From the NCBI GenBank assembly GCA_026026165.1, contig JAPEUD010000008.1, positions 124,001-188,000 on the forward strand: a stretch of DNA of 64,000 bases, in the 5' to 3' direction. The stretch is from Sarea resinae (Eukaryota). The position numbers were made by a program, and so were the translations under genes. Of the stretch, positions 8,697 through 31,020 are shown in pieces. Numbering within the stretch: the first letter of the stretch is position 1; each line of letters begins with the position of its first letter. The notes beneath the pieces are model-generated. The model ran no database searches. It saw nothing but the letters and a program-made list of their open reading frames with translations, and was not told the origin of the DNA.

Positions 8697-9482
8697 ATGC
8701 AAAAGGTATAGAAAGTATGTAATCTATCGTCACGTGAATTACATTTCCATAGAAGAACTCCCAGGAGGGAGCCTTTTATCTAGCTTAGCAGCCTCAGCCG
8801 ATGGGTGCTCTGCTCCTGCGTGCAATCATGTAAATGGACTATAAGTTTTGCACGTTGAAGCGCAAGTTCCGGATGAGTAGCTGCTGTAATCATCTACAAA
8901 GGCTTCAATTGATTTGGCCGAAGGACAGGTAGCTTTCTAGACAGTATTTAAACATTAATTGGCAATGCTGCCCAAGTCAGTCAAATATTAGGGTGCTTGA
9001 AATTGAAAGTCTGTGCCTTTGCTTCGCATCTTGAAAGCGAAGGTAGCCAGAGCTTCCCTACAGCCATCTATGTAATTATCTTTGTCTCCAGTATTTCACT
9101 CACTACGCAAACATCTCATGCGATTGGTACACAACCGTAAAGGACAACAAACGAGTCTGAGCCTCATAGATGATGTGTGAAGAATGACGTTGATGACTGC
9201 GGTGGCCTCTGACTGATGGTTCTGATGTTTCCCGCTCTCTCGCAAGTCTCATTGTGGCCTCGTCAGCAGGTGTAGCAGCACATACCAGCATTTAGGCAAC
9301 AGCCGAATAACCTCGACAACAACGACATCCCTTGCCACAATGCTTTTGATATGGCCCAGACTGTTCGCAACTATCTGCTTCCATCGCCGGTAATGCTCTG
9401 GAATCCACTGGTTCTTGAATGCTAATCTCGATTGCGTCCTCTATCTATTTCTTTTCATCCTGCGTTCCATACATTCGTAGCC

Positions 9483-12400
9483 ATGAGAGGCTTCCGACAA
9501 CGCCTTCTCTCGCAGCCTCTTTCGCAGAGTCTGACGAATCTGTACTTGGACGCAAAGACTTCTTACGAGACGGTGACTCGCCCGAGGGAATTAGAGGATG
9601 ATCCGGAATTCGTCGCTCTACATCGAAGATTGCGAATTCAAAAGGACCGACTTGCTACATGGGGCTTGGACTGGAGTGATTCCGCTGCCCTGCAAGGCGG
9701 TAATATCGATGAATCTATTCAGGAAGCTGGCTTGGCAGACGTCGTGGCAAGCGTCATGTCATCAATCCAAGAGATACTGAATGATGTCGAGAGCAAGCAG
9801 ACTTCTGAAGTGTCTCCGAAAGGCTTCGAGGATTCTGGGAAGAACCAGCCAGGGCACCGAAGGACAGAGACAGACAAATTGCGTCTAGAAGACTCAATCA
9901 AGGATCTCACGACTTCTATCGACACTTTGTACGACCTGTCTAGATCTCGTCATGGATACCATCACGTGGGTGGGCAGCAAACTCGACCAAATGAGAAGTG
10001 GCCAGCTCTCGCGGGCAAGAGCTCTCAGGCATCATCGTTAAGGACCGACCATCAAGACCCTGCTGATCTGGCAGATAACGAAGTCACTCTCTCTCACGAC
10101 TTGCCATCTTCTGGATTGCCCCAGTTGAAAGCGGAACTGCTTACGACGTTTCAGTCAGGTGATACGATCTCATCTCTGTCACGCCCTCCGCCATATGAAC
10201 CGGTAGCAACACCCTCTACTGTCAGGACCATCGGTCTTTACCACGGTCATGATTGTCCGAAGTCTTCTTCTGAAGCAGGAGAGAAAGAGTGCCCAGCTCG
10301 AGTTGTTCTGATCGAATACCTATGCCCATCCACTCTGGATCCAGCTGCGAGTCTCTCCGCAGTCTCATCTAAACTACAGAGTCCGGATCGGCCCTCCCAT
10401 CAGATCAAAAAGCATTACAATGAAACGTACACGGGCACGCTGAATCTGATAGGATACTTCAAAGATGCCCAGGGATCTCGTCTCGGGTTAGTATATGACT
10501 TACCACATGACAAGCCTCGCTTTACGAACAACCCTCAAAAGTTCTTACAGCGTTCGACGCCTTTCACTCTTCTCTCACTTCTACCGTCTAGCGGAAGTCC
10601 AACGAATACATCAGTGCCAGCGCTCGAGGATCGGCTACGCCTTGCTTTCAATCTCACTTCGACACTATTCCGGCTCCATGCAAAGGGAATTGTACACCGC
10701 AACGTCAACAGTAATAACGTTGTGTTCTTCCCACCTACCCCGCCTGAACCCGCCACTACTAAATCTACTTCTTCCCGTCCGCACAGGGGGCGGAACTGCA
10801 ACATAAGGACTCCGTACCTTTGCTCCATAGGGATGCTTCCTGACCCTGAGTCTGAGCATCCTACCAATTTGCGGCCCTCGAGTATCTATCGGCATCCATT
10901 TGAGGAAGATAACGCCAAGGCAATGCCATCATTCGACATCTACAGCTTAGGCCTGATTCTTCTGGAAATAGGCCTCTGGATGCCCTTAGGAGAATTTTGG
11001 AAGATGAAATATACCCTCGCAATGTTCAAGTCGAGATTACAGAACATCTATGTCAAAAAATTAGCGGCGAAATGTGGAACATCCTATATGCAAGCTGTCG
11101 AGGACTGCATCGCCATAGACGGGACTACGAACTTTCTTGTTGCACAAGACACCTACACGAGAATCCTAGGACGGCTTGAGCGCTGTTGTTTGATCGATGG
11201 CTATGATAGCATTTCTATTGAGACAACGACTAAGGGTAAAACTAACCCGGAGCATGATGGACTGCCAATTCAGGCGGCACTTAGTTCCGAAGGAAGAGAT
11301 ACAACCTCCCAACCATGGCTGTACGAGAGCGAGAAGCGAGACAGGATTAATAATTTTCCCGAGAAATGCCCTGTCCCCACTTGTCCCTTCCACGAGAAGG
11401 GGTTCGCACGAAAGTCTGACAAGAACAGGCACACGCTTACCCACTATAAAGGAACTATGTTTTGCGGTTTCTGCCATGGGACAGGCTTCTCCAAAGCAGA
11501 GAGCTTCACCCAGGTAGATGTCTTTAAGCGACATCTCACTTCAATCCATGGCGTGGAGCAATCTACTCTGAACAGTCCGAAGGGGAGCCTGGGTTCTGAA
11601 CAGAAAGGATCATTCTCTGTACACCCTCTGGATGCGATAGGCAAATGTTCCATTTGCTTGGCAAACTTTGACAATGCTCAAGACCTCTACGAGCATTTGG
11701 ATGACTGTATCTTTCAATCCATGCAGCAAGAAAATCTCACTCCGGCCACGAATAAAAGGGACGTAATGTCTATCGCAGAGGCTGAATTTGAACAGCTGGT
11801 ATCCCCACAACCAGCAGCACAGCCCCACCCAGGGCTTATCAATCCCACAGATCAGGTGATATCTGATGCCGGAAATTCTTCATCGTCTGCGTCAGTGAAG
11901 CTTCAATCCTCTGGAAACCCCACAGCATGTGTTTTAGATCCCAGTCGGCGGACTGTTCGAAAGCTGCGCGTCTACCCCGTGAAGACTGCTCCTCATCAGT
12001 TGGACGAGTGGCACGGAGTCCTACTTCCTCGTCTCGAACGCTTGCTTGAGAAGGCCGTGCGAGATCCCTACGAGACAGTTAGCATGGACTTTGTTAGTCT
12101 CGGTGAAACACAACAGAAGGCCAGACCGACGATCCTAGTCACTTGTACCAGCGTGAGGGATGTAAACAATATCCTCAGCCGCTATTTCACGTATGATAAC
12201 AGCCTCTACGATCTCAAAGTCCGTAGAGGGAAGATTCATCGATCTAAAGTCTCACGACCGAAGCAAAGGTCACCTCGTCGCTCAGCTGGACATTGGAAGA
12301 ACGAGAACGAAGACACTTCTGCAAAAAATCCCTTTCATCAGCAGCGACCCCTTTGCGGGGCGTCTATAGGTGTTTATAAAGACTCAGAGCATCTACCTCC

Positions 12401-13881
12401 TGTCTCGTATGGTGGTGTTATTCTATTAGATGGAGAGCCTTTTGGAATGACGGTCCATCACCTTCTTGAGACTCCTAGCGACGATGATAATAGCGAGGAT
12501 GAAGAAGACTTTTCTATTCGGTCGAGCGCTCGTTGGCCAGCTGGGTTAGATACGGATATTCAGGACCTCGGATCTCAACTTCAAGAGGACGATCTCCTAG
12601 ATTATCCGATTGTTGAATTTTCCGAAGACGAGAGCTGCTACTCTTCTACCGAAGATATCTATGAGATCGACCAAGACCTTTCCGATGATCCCAACTCTAG
12701 CGAAGATGAGAGTGGCCAGGAGGAGCGCGCTCGTTCCTGCGGAGACACCCCTAGCATTGCCAAAGGCAGTGGCGGGGAATACGTAATCACGCAGCCGGCC
12801 CTCGACGACGTCGACGACGATTTCTTTCCTTGCCCGGAAGATCGCGATGATGACCACCTCGACTCTCACACCCTCGGTCACATTTACGCTTCCTCAGGCC
12901 TTCGTCGCTGGAGCCGAAAAGGAATAGTCCACGAGATTGACTGGGCGATCCTCAAAGTCGACAGCGAGCGCCTCCAGCCTTACAATCTCATACAGGGCGG
13001 GAAGCGTTTTTGCCGCAAAGACTTTGGTGCTGGCGCTGATGGCGTGGCAATGTGTCCCAGACTCGTGGAGCCCGTTTGTCGGCGAGGGTTTGATGCAGCC
13101 GAGGATCTGTATCCCTTTCAGGTAGTACCGGAAGAGGAATTGGGTATGTTACGCGTGCATTGTTTGGGACGAACGAGCGGGCTACGGGGGGGAACGATCT
13201 CGCCGGCGATGAGCTCCGTCAGGGTCTATGGAAGGAAGACGTTTTCACGCAGTTGGGCCGTCGTCGGCAATTTTGGAGGTATGCTTATTTCCCATTTCCT
13301 TTGTCCCAGTGGATGAATTAGGAGTCGCACGTACTAACACATGTTGTACAGCTGGCGGTGACTCTGGCGCATGGGTCATCGACAATGAACAGGCTCGCGT
13401 CTGCGGTCACGTCATGGCATGGTGCGCGCGCAACGCCGTCGCCTATATATGCCCCATGCAAGTGCTATTCGAGGATATAGCACGTACGCTGCGTGTTGAT
13501 CGAATCGGGCTTCCGGGTGGTACTGCTACGGTAGCGAGGCAGGAGGATAGTGTGAAGGTGGATATCAGATCGGAGACCACGATGGCGCAAGAAGCGGAGA
13601 GAGAATCCGAAAGAGATGGCAGCTTTTTCCCAAGTCTCGACACCGCCACTGCCATGCCCACAGCTTCCACTAGTACTGGCGATCTACCCATACCCATCAC
13701 CATCAAGACCACCACCACTACAAGCTCCTCTTCTTCTTCTCCCTCTTCTCCTCTATGCCTCCCCCATCGTGCGCCCACAACTACCTACCGCCACCGCCGC
13801 CCAACCTCATTATCTCTGGACCGTAACGTCAACATCAACATCAGTAACGCGGCGTCGAGCCAGCAGCTCGTCAGAAGTTGA
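9483..13881 (+). CDS. Multidomain protein: N-terminal HeLo-like domain, kinase-like (pseudokinase) domain, C2H2 zinc-finger block, C-terminal trypsin-like (Ssy5/S64-like) serine protease
   Basis: Exon 9483-13278, intron 13279-13351, exon 13352-13881. N-terminal LHRRLRIQKDRLATWGLDWSD; kinase-like LEDRLRLA..IVHRNVNSNNV..IYRHP..FDIYSLGLILLEIGLW; CPVPTC..RHTLTH, CGFC..KRHLTSIH, CSIC..HLDDC; protease triad MTVHH / DWAILKV / GGDSGAWV. Confidence 0.8.
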
Positions 13882-17060: not shown

Positions 17061-19858
17061 TCACTGGAACTTCGGCACGTCGTAGACGTCGTCTGCATCT
17101 ATAAAGAGAGGACGCGTTAGAGTATTGATATATTAGCATTTACATATATATAGACATACCTTTCCCAACCGTCATGATGTACTCATGCGACTTATTTCTC
17201 AGGTGTCCTAACTCGGCCAAGATCTTCGGCATTTCAAGCTTGACTGTCTCGTTGGTCTTCGAGGCGCCCCTGATCGCCGCCTCAGCAACATGGTATCTGC
17301 TGACTCTGTTCTGGAGCATCATATCGAAGGGCGTCGTGGTAGTGCCTTCCTCTCGGTAGCTCTCGATCGAGACGCGGTTGAGGTTTGGCCGGCCAAAGAG
17401 CAAACCCTGGAGCTCCCCTGCGTAGCCATGGTAGTTGAAATGGATGGGCTTATCCGAGGTGAAAAGAGAGTCGAAGTCGTCATGGCTTAAGGAATGAGGA
17501 TGAGCGCCCTCGAGGCTGAGAATCATGAGATCTGTGACATTGACGACACGGAGACGGAGGTGAGGGGCAATTTTCCGGAGAAGTTCCGCTGCTTTGATTA
17601 CCTCGAAGGTGAGTTCGCAGCCGATGCCGACTATCACGACGTCTGGGTTCACGCCGCGGTCTGTGCTGGCGAATTTCCATACGGAGCCGCCGGCTTTGCA
17701 GTGACTGTCGGCTTCTTCAGGGGACAGGTATACTGGGGTGGGTTGCTTAGACCCAACCATCAGATTGACGTAGTTCTTCGAGCGAAGGCAGTGGGCAAAT
17801 GTTGAGAGGAAACAATTCGCGTCTGGGGGAAGATAGACGCGAGCAGCACCTGGCTTGAGATTCAATACAGCACCGATAAATGAAGGATTCTGGTGAGAAA
17901 AGCCGTTGTGCTCTTGCCTGGTCCAGGTGCTAGTTTCGATATAGTTAATACTACCAATATCTCCTCTCCATGACATTTCGCGAGCCTGAACCGGTCAGTA
18001 TATTAAACAGGTAGTGACTGATTGAGATTTACCATCTTATTGAACTTGCTGTACTGGACCATCATAGTGTGAACGATGCCCAGGAAGCTCTCATATGAGG
18101 GGAATAACCCCACTCGGCCAGTCAAGGTATAGCCTTGCATAAATCCTTGACATGTGTGCTCTGAGAGAATCTCGATAACTCTTCCGCCTTGTGCCTTCGA
18201 GTATTGGTCCCACTGGAAGTCTCGTCCAGTGTGACGGAAGACAGCGTCAAGCTTGTTGCTGACGAGCTCATCCGGCGAAAACACTCTCATCGTGTGCGGG
18301 TTGTCGACCAATGTCTTATCAAGCAATTCTCCGACGGCTTTCATGCAACTTACTTCCGAGAACTTTTCAACGCCGAATTGTTGCCATTCCGGGACGTTTA
18401 CACCCACAAAGCAATCATATGACTCCTTCCTCTGACCGAGCTTTTTGTCATCTCTTTTCGGGATGATGCTGAGGACTGGATCCTGAACGTCACCGTCTGG
18501 TGTGAAAAGCTCTTTGGGATGGTAAGACTCTAGCCATCCTTGGAGGTCTTTGAGCTCCTCTGGATCAGTCTTTGCAGCTGGAAGGGGTACTTGATGAGCA
18601 TGAAAAGAGCCTTCAATGAATTCTCCGTGTACTTTCTTGGGTCCTCCCCAGCCCTGTACCAATTAGCATTCACCAACGAGTATACTCACCATTCTGCGAC
18701 ATACCTTTGGCGTTCTCATGATCAGAACTGGCCATCTTGGTTTGGGGATTGGCTTTCCCGAACGAGCGGCCTCTTGGATCTTATGAATCTCGCCCACGGC
18801 CCACTCCATAGAAGCACCCATGTCCCCGTCAATATCTCCTAGATCCTCGACAAAGCGGACTTGGTAGCCATAGCCAGAGAACAGACAAACGATTTCTTTA
18901 TCGTCCATGCAGCCATATATGGTTCTCTCGCTGATTTTGAAGCCATTGACATGTACGATTGGTATGACTGCACCCGACTCTTTGGGATCAATGTATTTGT
19001 AGCCATGCCAAGCACTGCGTATCAGGTAATTAGCTCTCTTTCCTAAAGGATCTTTCTCTACTTACGTAGCAGTTGGGCCACTCTCGGCCTCACCATCGCC
19101 GACTACACAAGCGACGATGAGGTCGGGCTTGTCCATCACAGCACCAAAGGCAACAGACAAGGCGTATCCTAGCTCGCCACCTTCATGAATGGCTCCGGGA
19201 GTTTCCGCATTGATGTGACTATCGTCCCCGTCGTCAGAATATCGAGACATCGAGCGAAGTGGGAAAGTCTACTGACCTTGGAAATCCACCAGGTGTGCTA
19301 AATCTTGTAATCAGATTGTGCAAGCCCTGCTTATCCCGAGTGTAATGGGGATAGAATCGTCCCAATGAACCTTCGAGCCACAATGAGGCAAGAATAGCTG
19401 GAGCGCCATGGCCCGGTCCGACAACATAGAGGATATCCAGATCGTGCTTCTTGACCAGTAAATTCAGGTGGGAATATACGAGGATGAGACCCGGGCATGT
19501 CCCCCAGTGACCTATATCCACCTTAGCGATGATCTCGACTGCGCACGGTAGGCTCTAGCATACCCAGCAATCGATGCTTTATATCATCAAATGTTAGATC
19601 ACGGTCAATTAGCACATTGCCTTTCAGGAAGATCATAGCTAAGGCGGCGGTGATCAGCAAACGTTCGCGACGTCATATCTCAAGGCGTCTCGTACCCCCA
19701 GCAATATAGTTGGCCGCGCGGCGGAACTCCTGGAGGGCCAACCTGGTGCCATCATCGAGCTTCGCATTTTCGAGCTTCACCGAGAGAGACAGGACCTCGT
19801 CGGGGATGTGCGATGGCAGTGGAGGAGGGTTCGCTTGCTCAATCACTTCTCCGGGCAT
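17061..19858 (-). CDS. xfp: Xylulose-5-phosphate/fructose-6-phosphate phosphoketolase
   Basis: Multi-exon; motifs [45 protein letters not shown] (TPP-binding), [31 protein letters not shown]; last exon ..[10 protein letters not shown] ends at 17061. Confidence 0.97.
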
Positions 19859-20217
19859 ATTGACGAGATTGAATTCAATTGAGCTAAAATTGAGAGACGA
19901 TCGAATGATGGAAGGTCAAGAGTCAAGATCGATGGTGGGGGAGGGAGGGAAGAAATGAAATGCTTTACTTCTGTACTAACGTGAATGGATAAAGTAGTGA
20001 TGAGAGACCGATGACATTGATTTCGCAACAAGCTTGGAAGGTTAGTAGGTAAGGAAGGATCATGACAGATCACAGAGGGCCATCATACGATTCCCTCTCC
20101 AGCGCCGTCCACTTCCAGTTGGCCCACGCAGTTGGTCTCCCCAATTGGCCTCTTGACATCATTTCTGTTGTGCCATCGTAGATTCCAAGTCGCGGCATGA
20201 ACGGCATGAGCGACCTG

Positions 20218-20225
20218 TGACGTCA
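20218..20225. promoter_or_regulatory. Perfect CRE palindrome TGACGTCA (ATF/CREB-type bZIP site) in the xfp/ackA divergent promoter
   Basis: Exact TGACGTCA near the middle of the ~750-bp intergenic region between the two divergent start codons. Confidence 0.4.
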
Positions 20226-20605
20226 CGCTTGACGACAAGGTCAAGTTGGGTGCAAGCCAGGGAACGGTTCTTCTGTCATCTTTCATCTTTCTTCTTTCTT
20301 CAAGAGCATTCAAAACACCATCTATCTACGTCAACTATCCCAAGACTCTCATCGGAGAGGTACGGCATATAATTGCCCTCATCCACTGCAGACCTGCGTT
20401 TGCGGTGGCCTGCTTGGCGGAATTTGAAACGTCGTCACCATCATCATCATCTGGATCATCATCATCGTATCGATAAGCATATCGGGATACAGGGGTACTT
20501 CTCAACGCCGGCTCTATTGCCGATCCTCTTCGTCACGGCATCCCGAAGCCCTAAACAGGCATTGTGTTTACTGCCGCCAATCTCATCTCATCCTACCCAC
20601 CCGAA

Positions 20606-22085
20606 ATGGCACGAGTCATTCTTGCGATTAATGTTGGCTCCTCGTCCGTCAAAGTCTCCGTATACAAAGCTGCGCAGAAAGGCGCACCGCCCAAACACTT
20701 ACTCGAGGCCCAGGTCGCCGGCCTAACCGCGCCCCCAGCGACACTGACATACCAACGAGGAGAGACCAATATAAAATCCCAGAAAATCGAGCATGACATC
20801 AAGAGTCAGGAAGATGCGTTCACATACCTACTGGATTATATGACCAATGACAAGGACTTGCCCGACGTCTCCCACAGAGACGATATCAACTATGCCTGTC
20901 ATCGAGTGGTACACGGAGGTGATTTTCCGGATGCTCAAATCATCAGCAAACCGACATATCACTACATAGAACAGCTGTCCGACTTGGCTCCTCTGTAAGC
21001 TGCAGCTCCTCGTAATTCTCATTACTCTCCATTGCTAATCTTATTGCCCAGACACAACGGCGGCGCTCTCACCGTTATCCATACATGTATCAAGGAGCTC
21101 CCCAAGACCGAAAATGTAGCCTATTTCGACTCGTCGTTTCACACTACCCTCCCCAAAGAGATCCGCACCTACCCCATCGATCCCGAAATATCCTCGAGAA
21201 ACAAATTGCGAAAGTACGGATTTCATGGTATCAGCTATTCCTTCATCACCCGATCTGTCGCCGAATTCTTGCAGAAACCGATAGAGAAGACGAACATTAT
21301 TGCGCTGCATCTTGGGAGTGGGGCTTCAATATGTGCGGTCAAGGACGGAAAATCCTTTGATACTTCGTGAGTGGCCTTTTTCCCCCTCAGAGCTTCGCAA
21401 CTGATGGTCATTCAGCATGGGCTTAACACCTCTAGCAGGCCTTCCCGGGGCCACTAGAAGCGGCAGTATTGATCCCAGGTAAGAGCAATGCAGCAGGTCA
21501 AGTAACACCACTAAACTCTTTGCAGTCTTGTCTTCCACTATACCCACAAAGCAGGCCGTCTTAGCCCCAGCAGCACAAAGCAAATGCATATCAGCACAGT
21601 AAGCCATCCTCCTCTGGCCACCCTTTTGATCATGTGAAGAAGCCCCTAACACATCCTTCCGACCCCAGGCAGAGGAAATTCTCAACAAAGAGTCAGGGTG
21701 GAAATCCTTGACTGGCACCACTGACTTTGGCCACATCTCTTCTCACGCTGAAGACTCAGCCTGTGCTCTTGCTTTTGACATTTTCGTCGACCGCATTCTC
21801 GGCTACATTGGCAGCTACTATATCAAGCTCTCCGGTGACGTTGACGCGTTAGTGTTCGCAGGCGGGATTGGAGAAAAGGGATCGAGATTACGCCAAAGCA
21901 TAATTGACCAGTGCAAATGTCTGGGATTTGAGATTGATCAAAAGACAAATGAGAAGCCCGGGGACGGGGTGGTGACGGAGTTGACGGGGGAGAAATCGAG
22001 ATATCGGACGCTGATATGTAAGACGGATGAGCAATTTGAGATGGCGAGGGGATGCGCGAGAGATGATAGGATATGGGTTGATTGA
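20606..22085 (+). CDS. ackA: Acetate kinase
   Basis: ATG 20606; ILAINVGSSSVK, CHRVVHGG, LAPL/HN, FDSSFH, RKYGFHGISY, HLGSGAS, MGLTPLAGLPGATRSGSIDP, LVFAGGIGE, TDEQFEMAR; four short introns. Confidence 0.97.
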
Positions 22086-26159: not shown

Positions 26160-29100
26160 TCAGCACGCCCAATGACAATCCATCTGCCGATTCTGTATTG
26201 ATCGAAAATTAGCATCTCAGTCTCTCTATCCGAAGTTTGACAACGGTGGCAGTGGAAGAAGTTGTGGGTTTCAAGGGGGAGAAGAGAAGAAAATAAAAAT
26301 AAACTTGACTTACAGCTGAATGCTGGTCGGCGCCCAGCGACGTCGCGCTATCGAGCCAATCCCAGAAATTGCCATTGTCCCATCCGCCGACGGAGCAGTA
26401 CGGCAGGCGGGACGAATCCGTATCCGTGTCATCCCACTCGGTCGAGCCGGCCGTCAGGGTGAGGACCCAATCTTCCCAGTTGATCTGGGGCGGCGGGGGC
26501 GCGACCATTCTGCCACGGAAGCGGCGGCTGCTGCTGCTTGTGGGAATGGTGGTGCGGTTGAGGAAGTCGACGGAGAGGTCGTAGGGGAGGTGGGAGTCAG
26601 AGGCGGCGACCGAGGCGCTGTCGCCCCAGTGGAGCTGGTAGTTTTGGCTGGCGAGCAGCGCGTTGGCGCCGTCGGTGATGTTGAGCTGCACGTACAGCGG
26701 CTCGTTGTAGCTGAGCGAGGCCTCGAAGATGTGCAGATCGCACGTGCCGGTGGCGTAGGCGGGCGGGGGCGACGAGGTGCTGACGGCGATGCGCGTCGTG
26801 GTGCCGACTTCGCACGTGTACGTGGTGGCCTTGTCCGGGCCCACGGTCGTGCCCACGCCGGCCTGCCACCCGTCATTGCATGCACATGCGATGGTGGCGG
26901 GGACGTTGATGTCGCCGGTGCTGAGAGCCGCCTGGCTGGTTAGAGCACAGGAGGTTATTGGTGGCACTGTAGTGCTGACGGCTATACGTGTGGTTGTGCC
27001 GACCTCGCAGGTGTACGTGGTTGCCTTGTCAGGGCCAACCGTCGTCCCCACGCCGGCCTGCCAACCGTCATTGCATGCACATGCGATGGTGGCTGGAATG
27101 TTGATATCGCCGGTGCTGAGAGCCGCTTGGCTAGTCAAAGTACAAGAGCTAATCGGCGGAGATGAAGTTATGCTGTAGGTGGAGGACGCCGTGGAAGTTA
27201 CGCTATGGCCGGAGGACGAGGCAGCACTGGGGGATATAGATGATAGCGGCGAAGACGAGCCTGTGGCCTTTGTTGTTTTTATGAGCATAGTACTCGTCGA
27301 GGATGGCCCGGAGCCCGAGCTTGTCGAAGCCTTTGTTGCTGAATTGGTGGTACTCGAGATCTGGGTGCTATTTGCGCTGGGCGATGATGACGAGCTTCCA
27401 GTGGATGCCCCATTCGAGCTCGAAGAAGTCTTGGAGGCGCCGGATGAAGTGGCGGAACTGCTAGAGCTAGAACCGGTGGAATTACTGGTGTAGCCGCTGC
27501 ATGGGTTTGCGTAGCCAACGTCTCGCTGCTGAATAGTGCCCGTGGGTGGTGTAGTGTGCGGAAGCCAGAAGTCTTGGTACGTGATCAGTTGATCCTCTAC
27601 CCACAACCGCCATCGACCGATTTGAAGGCCGGGAGAGGTCGGATCCACACCAGACGCAGTCGTTGTGAGCCAGCTCTGGAACGGGTCAACTTCCAAGATG
27701 GCTCTACCGGCAGTGCCAGGGTTCTGGGTTGACGCTTGTGCGCTGGTACGCGTGTAGCCCAAGGTAAAGCCGGTACCACCTGAACCAGGCAGGATTCCGG
27801 CTATCTTGTTCGCGAGATCCTGAGCGCGCGCTTGATACCTCAGCGTAGTGGTGATTTGGAAGTTATTTCGATCAAAGTCGGTTGTGCGCGGAGTGAGGAC
27901 AAAGACTTTGGGGCTGTAGATAGCGTTCAAGACTCCAGGCTGGGCGTCGGTTCCTATGAGGGAGGTAATACTTAGAGCATTTGCTGTGCCATCGCGGAGA
28001 GAATTGAACGCTTTAGTCGTAAAAGAAGCGTCGTCGGTTGAAGCCCAAGTACTGTCAATGAAGACAGGGTTCTCCCAGATGTGAGAGAGATACACACCCT
28101 TCTCGGATGAGATGATCACGGCCGTGCACCCGTAAATGCCATTGACACCTACAGCTGCGTGACCAAAGATTGGATAGTCGTACCAGTGTCCAGACGCATC
28201 TCCTTGTTGACTGACCCAGGTAGCCCCTTGACTCAAACCTCTGACGTAGTTGGTGTAAGGAGGAGTGACGTCCGGAAGAGCGCGTTCAAACAAGGGGTTA
28301 GAAATATCCCCCAGAGTTTCATTGGAATCCGTTGGATCACTGGAAAATCCTCTCTTGGAAGGGGCATTGGTGGAGTCAGTCGGGCTTGCAACCGCAATGG
28401 TCCCAGCGACTCCGTAGCTAGCGGTTGGCAGAGCAGAGGTCGTACTCGTTGAGATCAGCGAACAGTCTTCAGTAGTAGCTATGATCCCCATGCTGGCGCC
28501 ACTGAGAGGACCTCCACCCAGGGGACATGCGCCCCCACAAGTATCAGAAGCACATGGTGTCTGAGTTGCGCTTGACGACGCCGAACTAGAGACAGTCGTT
28601 GTCGTTCCGGTGACAGAGCAGCCGCTGGTCGTGACCGTGGTTGTGGGCGAGCAAGTCGTGGTTGAAACCGTGGAACCGCCGGTCGTATATGTGGTAGGTA
28701 TACATAGAACAGTGACTCTCAATGCTGTTTGCGTGGATGTGCACGAGGAGGATGAGCTCGTTCCAGAACTGCTTCCGGTGCTCTTTGACGTGCCCGTTGA
28801 TGTTTTAGAGTTCGTGTTGCTACTCGAATTGTTGTCGTCGCCGTCGTCAGTGAGATCATCGTTCTCTGATGTTAAGTCGTCCAAAGTGCTTTCAACGCCC
28901 TCGGTATCATCGGCATTGACACTGTCCGTGATGTTGTCCAAATCCTCGTCGATGCAAGACAATGAACTTACGACGTCGCTGATAGGGCCCAGCAGACCCC
29001 TCTTCTTCTTCTTCGAACCACATGGTTTAGACGACGAATCACTGCCCAGATCGGAGATGAGATCTTCCACGTCGCTTTTGATACTTTTGACTTTGTTTAG

Positions 29101-29973
29101 AGTGTCTGTCTTGAGCGGTGTCGGGCTTGCCTTCCAAGAATTGATGACAGGTATCAGGCCTACAATCTGGGAGGACACTGAAGATACAGCAGACGTTGCT
29201 TGAGAGCTGGCAATAGTCGTTGTAGCTGCTGGAAGAGTAATTGGTGACGAGAGTCCTCCGCCAGTAATGATGGGCTCTCTGACGGTTGTGCCAGATTCCA
29301 CAATGATGGAAGTGATGATGCCTAATGTGACGCTGGGAATAGCTGAAGTGCTGTTGCTGCTACCAATAGCCGTCGAGGATGACCCTGAAGAGGAAGAGGG
29401 CCTTGGCGAGCTTCCCGTTCCAGCCGATGAGCTAGCCAATATTGGAGAGGAAGATAATCTTGATGAGCTCCCTGTCCCAGTTGATGACGAGGTGGACGAA
29501 TTTGAAAATCTTGCGGTGGATGGGAGGCTGATGCTCGATGAGGAGACTGCCGTGCTGTTGGTGCCTTGAATGCTATTGCTAGTGCTGGGAGGTAGGTTTG
29601 TACTTGACGAAGAGGGTGTGCTGGATGTGATAGGCGCAGAGTTGGAACAAGCCTTGCCGGGGACAATAACGACAGAGCCTCCCTGCTTGACAGCAGACAT
29701 GACACAGCCATCTGAAAGAGTGTAAGTAGCCGCTGTGGTGTTTCCTCCCAGGCTAATCGTTTTGCTTGAGTCGACTACAATACCGGCGCCGTTTGGAAGG
29801 ATAGACAAGGGCTCTGCATCATACGTAGTCGCGGTAGAGACGGGCAAGGTAAAATTGGAGTAGTATACACTACTACTGCTCGATATGGCAGCTGCAGATG
29901 CATATCGGGCAATCGAAGACAGGACGAAAAGCGCTCTTCCGGTTGATGCGGGCCAGCCGCCATGGTACCGCAT
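26160..29973 (-). CDS. Large secreted Ser/Thr-rich multidomain protein with putative CNF1/CheD-like Cys-His domain, two Cys-rich repeats and a C-terminal Cys/Trp domain
   Basis: Exon 29973-26314, GT-AG intron 26313-26193, last exon 26192-26160 (NRQMDCHWAC*); ~1230 aa. Signal-peptide-like N-terminus (ALFVLSSIARYASA|AAI); dibasic sites KKKKR, SKR; motif VGVNGIYGCTAVIISSEKGVYLSHIWE. The gene model is well supported, the function is not. Confidence 0.8.
26772..27160 (-). repeat. Two tandem 195-nt (65-aa) coding repeats
   Basis: PPI(S/T)SC(T/A)LTSQAALSTGDIN(I/V)PATIACACNDGWQAGVGTTVGPDKATTYTCEVGTTTRIAVST occurs twice; identical nucleotide anchors are 195 nt apart (26878 and 27073). Confidence 0.95.
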
Positions 29974-31020
29974 GATGAGGGTTGATGTAAAGACAGACGC
30001 AGGTGAAAGAGACGTGAAGACAGATGCAAAAACGAGAGACGTAAAGACAGCTGCAAAAGAATGAGATGCAAGAGATAGGAATCAACAAGATTGCTCGCAT
30101 GGGAATCGAGGCACATCTATAAACGCTTATACCCGACGACTCTGGACAACAGCTGGAGATCATGAGATTGACATTATCGTATATAGCCCTATTAGAACAA
30201 AGATTCCGATCCTAGATCTGTTGGAGAAAGCAACTAATGCATGTTGGACATGACTGAAACGATCGTGCCCAAGGATACTGCTGCGCCGCGGACTGCGGGC
30301 GTAAACCTCACAGTCGATCTGCGGACAGGCACATTGGACGTGGAGCAGCAGAGAGAGAGAGAGAGATCAGCCTATACACAATACGAAGATATGAAACATA
30401 CAACCTGGAAGACCGATGAAGCACCGAAAAGGGAAAAGGTTGGACGTGCTGTGACCAACACCAACCAACACTCCAACACCCTTTGGTGAGCAGGAGTAAT
30501 AGTAAGCACTAGATCAGCCTCGCAGCCGTCTCCCGCTCTTGACGGATCATCGGTTGACGGTTCATGGTTGATATTCATCCACCGATGCCCATCTCATCGG
30601 TGGCCGTTTCAGCCCACGCACGGCCACGGGGGCGCTCTGATCCTGTACTACCATGTATGAGTACTACGTAATACTATGGATGAGTACTACGTGCTACTTG
30701 ATACCCTCATGGAGCCGTGTGCACGGATGGCCAATTTCCTTTTCCTCGATGCGAGTGAGGGATTCATTTCCAACGTGTTGTTACGCAGGAGCATTATGTA
30801 AAGGGTGATCATCGCTAAACTGAGGTACCACCTTACCCCAACACTAAGATTTACGTACGGAGTATCGAGTGCTCTCGACATCGGTGACAGGTATGGCAGG
30901 GACCTTGAACGGGGTTCCATGAGCATCGCCCTGGTGCCATATACAATGGGATGGCAACAGCAGATTCAGTCTGCGTACTGACCGGATACAGGATATCACA
31001 TAGTAGTCAATCCAGAAAAG

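Follow-up and report, generated by a model that had tools for sequence, protein, structure and literature searches.

In Aspergillus nidulans, the protease SltB first cleaves its own chain in cis near Met692 and afterwards shortens the zinc-finger factor SltA from 78 to 32 kDa; the Ser1142Ala exchange abolishes both cleavages, and the N-terminal half (N-half) is required as well, since the protease half shows no activity on its own (PMC4985261). SltB cleavage is constitutive, occurring in healthy cells under all growth conditions tested, and all forms of the protein are described as cytoplasmic and excluded from nuclei, with no membrane association seen (PMC4985261). Deletion of sltB causes a sensitivity to cations and alkali that is identical to that of an sltA deletion (PMC4557415; further A. 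nidulans SltB literature: PMC11011638). The role of the N-half has been called ‘enigmatic’: the fragment 1-477 alone gives a plain null phenotype, and an N-terminal fusion to green fluorescent protein, the only N-tagged construct, is self-cleaved yet non-functional (PMC4985261). We analysed a stretch of 64,000 nucleotides from Sarea resinae (contig JAPEUD010000008.1, positions 124,001 to 188,000; hereafter the window), in which a gene at positions 9483 to 13881 had been interpreted in an earlier note as a candidate fungal cell-death executor. In the note's reading, an MLKL-like HeLo domain and pseudokinase are fused to an intact serine protease, and our analysis supports this layout, with a HeLo-like bundle and a pseudokinase in the MLKL-like order. 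Judged by its sequence, however, the gene is the single-copy S. resinae ortholog of A. nidulans SltB (AN6132), a known family, here in a lineage-specific variant with captured zinc fingers. This assignment removes the ground for announcing a new fungal death executor, since the family has been studied before and the protein is a conserved single-copy ortholog of one with a known role (PMC4557415, PMC4985261). It is highly probable that the gene encodes a functional S. resinae SltB, with self-cleavage, SltA cleavage and a cation/alkali role of the A. nidulans type.

A homolog search found 602 proteins, the best 120 of which (1102-1601 amino acids) were listed; family counts below refer to the 119 relatives among these. 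All those with a species name belong to the Pezizomycotina. Motifs that match by eye between the S. resinae protein and the published A. nidulans sequence (Fig. S2 in the supplement of PMC4557415) run from end to end: QxDRLxxWGLDWSD, PPPYE, YRHP, DxYSLGL, KCG, RPLCGAS, GMTVHH, TQPAxDDV, HEIDWA, GRTSGL, NFG/xGDSGAW and EDIARTL. Around the catalytic His, 33 of 45 residues are identical by eye to A. nidulans 836-880 without gaps. Eight of the nine mutated SltB residues are also identical (Y478, Y568, E743, T972, H1033, F1126, S1142 and G1156), while N544 is replaced by T. The single intron lies at the position of the intron in A. nidulans sltB, where the donor at nucleotide 3413 splits codon 1138 in phase 1, with Ser1142 four codons further on, and 11 of the 119 relatives have calls made from open reading frames (ORFs) only that end at this same intron. 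Queries with either half of the protein each gave one match in its own genome, as expected of a single copy. Domain order, end-to-end motifs, intron position and phase, catalytic Ser, copy number and an sltA-like partner gene are all common to the two species, whereas the S. resinae copy differs in having three ZfpA-derived fingers in its linker and a longer tail (1441 versus 1272 amino acids).

The partner is a three-finger gene at G000:C85, ~61500-64200 (+), loci L056/L060, which appears intact. Its finger 1 carries Lys at helix position 6, and its KR...Met spacing is the published one (PMC4557415, PMC4985261). A first sltA pattern had no match in the genome because an intron splits zinc finger 1 of this gene, and the 50 loci derived from 77 PF00096 genome matches did not include it. 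Two other sequence patterns found the gene, which ruled out the idea that a loss of sltA had been offset by the fusion. On accession and description, we also dropped an orthology with LopB: the L. maculans relative is CBX96056, while LopB is AAP40632, a protein for which a signal peptide is reported.

The splice model gives one open frame of 1441 amino acids in two exons on the forward strand, without an internal stop and with standard intron signals for donor, branch and acceptor (GTATGC...ACTAAC...CAG). The intron, unmentioned in the earlier note, matters for the protease, as GGDSG is encoded only once it is spliced out. The public S. resinae protein P0001 is identical over residues 1-1288, then diverges and stops early; because it thereby loses conserved C-terminal sequence, we consider the two-exon model the better one. 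The parts of the gene are as follows.

9483..13278, + strand: exon 1, codons 1-1265 plus one base (open frame and splice model)
13279..13351, + strand: single phase-1 intron of 73 nt, four codons 5′ of the catalytic Ser (splice model)
13352..13881, + strand: exon 2, with GGDSG, the final protease strands and helix, and an unconserved Ser/Thr-rich tail
9531..9953, + strand: HeLo-like helical bundle, residues 17-157, without a hydrophobic N-terminal helix (Pfam, model helices, MLKL alignment, hydropathy)
10140..11201, + strand: pseudokinase domain, residues ~220-573, with HRNVNSNN at 405-412 and SIG at the DFG position (fold, Foldseek, CLK1 profile alignment, column counts)
10185..10196, + strand: PPxY motif (PPPY, residues 235-238), a candidate site for a WW domain (Rsp5/HulA-type ligase)
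11358..11798, + strand: captured 441-bp block, residues 626-772, with three zinc fingers of types C2H2, C2H2 and C2HC (donor alignment)
11958..12227, + strand: alpha/beta domain, residues 826-915, counterpart of the NAL1 ‘ATP-binding’ domain (fold alignment of an ortholog model, NAL1 domain limits)
12345..12476, + strand: first stretch of the chymotrypsin-fold protease, residues 955-998, with His992 at 12456-12458 (invariance, identity, fold)
12477..12767, + strand: acidic, poorly conserved insert of ~97 residues between the protease His and Asp (low predicted local distance difference test score, pLDDT, in the ortholog model)
12768..13521, + strand: remaining protease, residues 1096-1322 across the intron, with Asp1153 (12939) and Ser1270 (13363)
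9294..9298, + strand: AGGCA at position -189, a possible SltA site (two sites seen versus 1.4 expected in 786 nt of promoter, no excess over chance)
9014, reverse strand: second AGGCA (same promoter count)

The zinc fingers (629-742) and the NAL1-type alpha/beta domain (826-915) had been missed by the earlier note, while its coordinates for the catalytic triad agree exactly with the splice model (His992 at 12456, Asp1153 at 12939, Ser1270 at 13363). His992 and Asp1153 are invariant in all 119 relatives. Ser1270, which sits in GDSGAW and equals A. nidulans Ser1142, is present in 108 relatives, that is, in every row that holds exon 2, and these rows have the full H/D/S triad. We modelled the protease half on an ortholog fragment, P0123. 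The best fold match of this model is rice NAL1, over alpha/beta domain and protease together (model 157-664 with NAL1 90-456; Z 20.7, 292 residues aligned, root-mean-square deviation (rmsd) 4.6), which bears out the proposed trypsin fold on the model of an ortholog. Next come alpha-lytic-type proteases (Z 18.4, rmsd 2.5). There was no S64 Pfam match at E up to 0.5, and sequence searches of the PDB gave no protease match. Rice NAL1 (PMC12012508) and the S64 protease Ssy5 of yeast likewise have the chymotrypsin fold, work inside the cell and cleave transcription factors, but identity with them is 15-16%, and the S. resinae protein has an acidic insert between His and Asp.

Conservation and the modelled fold point to A. 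nidulans His873, in TVHH, as the catalytic His, since it is the equivalent of His992. The SltB literature proposes His939, 925, 1008 or 1033 for this role (PMC4557415, PMC4985261), although His1033Ala causes only a partial loss in A. nidulans (PMC4985261). His873 was left out of the published protease model because that model covered residues 900-1192 only (PMC4985261). His992 lies 37 residues past the start of the protease fold alignment, and without the 97-residue acidic insert its spacing to the Asp would be ~64 residues, as compared to 57 for H234/D291 of NAL1 (PMC12012508). The adjoining His993 is equally invariant.

In the N-half, the HeLo assignment of the earlier note holds in part: PF14479 is listed for 99 of the 119 relatives (counted by eye), and 10 of the 12 close relatives that were rescanned score above the cut-off with it, but in the S. 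resinae protein itself it scores E=0.008, under the cut-off in the Pfam scan. The motifs quoted in that note are all present, RRLRIQKDRLATWGLDW at residue 48 and HRNVNSNN at 405. In a model of residues 1-574 (pLDDT 72), a disordered link joins a helical bundle at 17-157 to a kinase fold (Z ~20), and this fold was also found with Foldseek and by profile alignment to CLK1. Full-length MLKL (4btf) aligns over model residues 40-567 (Z 17.4, rmsd 21.9, with a different orientation of the domains) and is alone among the 50 fold matches listed in covering both helices and kinase. The kinase-like domain lacks the HRD Asp and the DFG motif, as had been noticed, with Asn407 and SIG in their places and Glu278 probably at the position of the beta-3 Lys, as judged from the strands of the model. 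The missing Asp, which is Asn in A. nidulans SltB as well, is nevertheless not a family-wide trait: 113 relatives keep the HRD Asp but have SFD at the DFG position. Helices 1-2 contain conserved basic residues. In the best 19-residue window, N-terminal hydropathy is 0.0 in S. resinae; over the 119 rows, the median is -0.36 and the maximum 1.14, so that no relative reaches 1.6, and a HET-S-like protein of the same genome scores 1.59. The latter is encoded by a canonical gene at G000:C93:162022-162588 (+), locus L059 (HeLo E=1e-41, with a hydrophobic N-terminal helix), the only HeLo match scored by the genome search, and its C-terminal region presumably resembles the HET-s prion domain. Two further DUF7580 pseudokinase-like genes, at G000:C54:201599-202690 and C70:220446-221453, are possible PskA-type paralogs.

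PPxY motifs bind WW domains, and PPxY or LPxY is present in 116 of the 119 relatives and in A. nidulans SltB. The latter protein is ubiquitinated at K257, ~25 residues before the PPxY (PMC4985261), and slt mutations suppress vps deletions (PMC4557415). Binding of a WW ligase and a non-lethal endosomal role are described for MLKL (PMC8816944).

The block at 11358-11798 is a gap-free, 441-bp homolog of a ZfpA-like gene at G000:C89:175624-176019 (-), with 329 of 441 nucleotides (75%) and 94 of 147 amino acids identical; the similarity falls to background at both ends, and the block is in frame at both. The donor (~175400-177800, loci L002/L005) appears to be an intact four-finger gene, of which fingers 2-4 were captured and finger 1 was not. 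In a tree of 58 rows (the 55 best of 145 long matches, the insert, the donor and a fusion protein, P0294; 4 short rows were dropped), insert and donor are sisters with supports of 99 and 98, although the bootstrap had not fully settled. An origin from SltA was rejected, as only 24 of 90 residues are identical to the sltA-like fingers. A separately assembled contig of 1931 nt spans both junctions without any difference at a depth of 339, as compared to 337-349 in the flanks, which is single-copy depth, and the donor lies on a different contig from the insert. The run behind this contig may be the assembly's own source run, and runs X2-X4 gave short pieces only.

The block is under purifying selection, which keeps its fingers folded. 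All 12 zinc ligands are kept, and conserved columns are kept in 44 of 50 cases as opposed to 49 of 97 other columns (p=5e-6). In simulations of neutral change, all 12 ligands survived in 0 of 4000 runs at 0.46 changes per site and in 3 of 4000 at 0.3. The pairwise ratio of nonsynonymous to synonymous substitution rates (dN/dS) relative to the donor is 0.09 for fingers 1-2 and 0.14 for finger 3, versus 0.69 and 0.54 for the spacers. Like ZfpA-type C2H2 factors (PF28332), the block has fingers 2-4 with all 12 ligands; unlike them, it lacks finger 1 as well as all other parts of the factor, is embedded in a protease zymogen, and has Gln at helix position -1 of the second captured finger, where 148 of 149 ZfpA-like proteins have Arg. 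It is thus a ZfpA-derived module with three of four fingers, not a ZfpA. Because this key base-reading Arg is lost, the fingers are most likely a tolerated structural or binding appendage, and retention as a folded passenger is more probable than a new DNA-binding output.

The block is absent from all 119 SltB relatives taken from the best 120 of 602 homologs, among which P0019 alone has one single C2HC-like pattern, and a JGI metagenome scan found no relative. Conversely, none of 149 finger-bearing representatives, taken from the best 150 of 600 matches in 50%-identity clusters that hide close kin, carries SltB HeLo, kinase, alpha/beta or first-protease segments. Among 26 long carriers of the finger block are 5 kinases, 5 proteins with DUF7896 and 1 with ankyrins (carriers include P0239, P0258, P0268, P0275, P0287, P0151 and P0278; one kinase has a HET domain, and some may be gene-model fusions). 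In P0294, from Lasiosphaeria hispida, four ZfpA-type fingers are independently fused to an SltB/NAL1-like protease whose nucleophile motif is GDCG, with Cys for Ser. The same SltB linker contains a Drf_GBD domain in P0003, from another species (residues 601-677, E=7e-10), which suggests a hotspot of domain capture. One or two IQ-like motifs are present in the linkers of 98 relatives out of 119 (P0006-P0120; two in 78 of them), as compared to 0.4% in shuffled sequences, but the S. resinae linker has none; these motifs may provide a calmodulin input to a calcium-linked pathway.

Several points weigh against our interpretation. The A. nidulans sequence was matched by eye, without an alignment run, and the sltA-like gene was located with sequence motifs before it was checked against published spacings, with no sltA name given by the Atlas. 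The ZfpA label is likewise the best named Atlas match (feature hit 0.93; PF28332 on 86% of members), and the insert sits on a long branch of 1.0, as compared to 0.08 for the donor. Against family profiles built without S. resinae, its N-half has the lowest kinase score and the second-lowest HeLo score of 120, and 12 of 80 conserved kinase columns are changed, so the role of the N-half may have drifted in this species. A lineage-specific acceleration of the N-half was considered and dropped, the ratio of N- to C-half branches (2.08, second of 23) not being exceptional.

We propose the following mechanism, in which much is transferred from A. nidulans. SltB would be made as a cytoplasmic signalling protease zymogen, whose C-half (NAL1-type alpha/beta domain and chymotrypsin fold, with the triad H992/D1153/S1270) would act in cis and sever the polypeptide where the linker ends, around residues 810-825 and just ahead of the alpha/beta domain. 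This agrees with the earlier suggestion of self-cleavage, which fits orthology with the self-cleaving SltB (PMC4557415, PMC4985261). The N-half (HeLo-like bundle, PPxY and pseudokinase) would be a required pro- or scaffold part rather than a pore former, and would enable the protease to cut SltA into its active form. Active SltA would then drive genes for cation and alkaline-pH tolerance and sltB itself. A predicted complex of N-half parts with the protease half of the ortholog P0002, run without alignments, scored 0.01, which decides nothing on contacts between the halves. Because the block precedes the expected cut site, the captured fingers would travel with the N-half after cleavage.

The fingers could instead give the protein a new output, with the N-half acting as a DNA-binding or DNA-tethered regulator, or as a recruiter of ZfpA partners, besides the cutting of SltA. 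Selection acts on the fingers and not on the spacers, the first captured finger has preserved its recognition helix almost completely, the block is N-terminal to the expected cut site, and P0294 is an independent fusion of ZfpA fingers with a protease. However, the second finger has Gln for Arg at position -1 and the first ZfpA finger was never captured, while intact ZfpA-like donor and sltA-like genes are still in the genome. In addition, A. nidulans SltB is described as excluded from nuclei (PMC4985261), and ZfpA did not bind the single promoter tested by electrophoretic mobility shift assay (PMC10434176). Finally, linkers elsewhere take up unrelated modules (Drf_GBD in P0003, IQ-like motifs), and the same block in kinase, ankyrin and DUF7896 proteins fits a promiscuous passenger. 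We regard a new output as unlikely. We give slightly less credence to a broader version, in which SltB is a necroptosis-type MLKL module in non-lethal use and its N-half, once released, is a chimeric regulator with its own ZfpA-derived DNA-binding fingers. If it were true, the HeLo bundle and PPxY would read a membrane or endosomal/ubiquitin state and gate the NAL1-type protease, which would explain both why vps mutants are suppressed and why N-terminal tagging abolishes function, and the zymogen would free a transcription-factor module from itself.

Less likely still is the single-chain death executor, in which self-cleavage would free an MLKL-like HeLo-pseudokinase that permeabilises the membrane. 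MLKL is not known to have a hydrophobic helix of the HET-S type, so the low N-terminal hydropathy leaves an MLKL-type mechanism standing; the layout, with 4btf alone among the 50 listed matches in spanning helices and kinase, and the conserved basic residues of helices 1-2 also fit it. Moreover, the published N-fragment was probably present at a low level, because its promoter needs active SltA, and the only N-tagged construct was non-functional (PMC4985261). On the other hand, cleavage is constitutive in healthy A. nidulans and localisation is cytoplasmic (PMC4985261), and the deletion phenotype is cation/alkali sensitivity like that of sltA (PMC4557415). The hydrophobic N-terminal helix, which is the killing part of HET-S (PMC7889193), is missing, with a hydropathy of 0.0 versus 1.59 in the genome's HET-S-like protein. 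The gene is a conserved single copy flanked by those for an amino-acid permease and an annexin, and no NLR, HET or gasdermin family was found among the 45 of 173 window ORFs that were scanned. Comparison with the known executors points in the same direction. In SltB, as in MLKL and the fungal HeLo/HELL-pseudokinase proteins (PMC12881547), a helical bundle precedes a dead kinase domain, but SltB differs from them in its fusion to an active protease, its constitutive release without death in A. nidulans, the lack of a hydrophobic first helix and its conservation as a single copy. With HET-S/HELLP executors it has a weak HeLo profile match in common, but neither the hydrophobic helix nor an adjoining NLR, and the genome has a separate, true HET-S-like gene; PDB sequence searches gave no HET-S match among the rows listed. 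Fungal proteases that activate gasdermins are S8 subtilases or CHAT proteases, usually encoded beside the gasdermin gene (PMC12881547), whereas the fold here is of the chymotrypsin type.

We give almost no credence to the idea that the block is a chimera of the assembly or is decaying as a neutral insertion: although it is seen in one genome only, has a long branch and is spanned by a contig that may derive from the source run itself, it has diverged by 25% in nucleotides from its donor while staying in frame at both ends, a separate 1931-nt contig crosses both junctions at single-copy depth with the donor on another contig, and its pattern of conservation is incompatible with neutral change.

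HeLo-kinase proteins as such are already known (PMC12881547, PMC3689799, PMC9815663). In the SltB literature, as far as the available text of PMC4557415 and PMC4985261 goes, HeLo, HET-s and MLKL are not mentioned, and a literature search for SltB with HeLo, which left most subscription papers outside, returned nothing relevant. Within the same bounds, we did not find the HeLo/MLKL-like N-half, the conserved PPxY, the NAL1-like protease half or His873 as the better catalytic His. For the Slt pathway, His873, the HeLo-like bundle, the PPxY and the NAL1-like C-half are directly testable points in A. nidulans. For protein evolution, the block clearly illustrates how a domain was captured in frame from within the same genome and then retained under selection; the captured module is also met with in kinases and a related protease.

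Elsewhere in the window, an open frame of 1290 amino acids at 26209-30081 (-) has no Pfam match, and adjoining, divergent genes for a phosphoketolase (-) and an acetate kinase (+) lie at 17140-22085.

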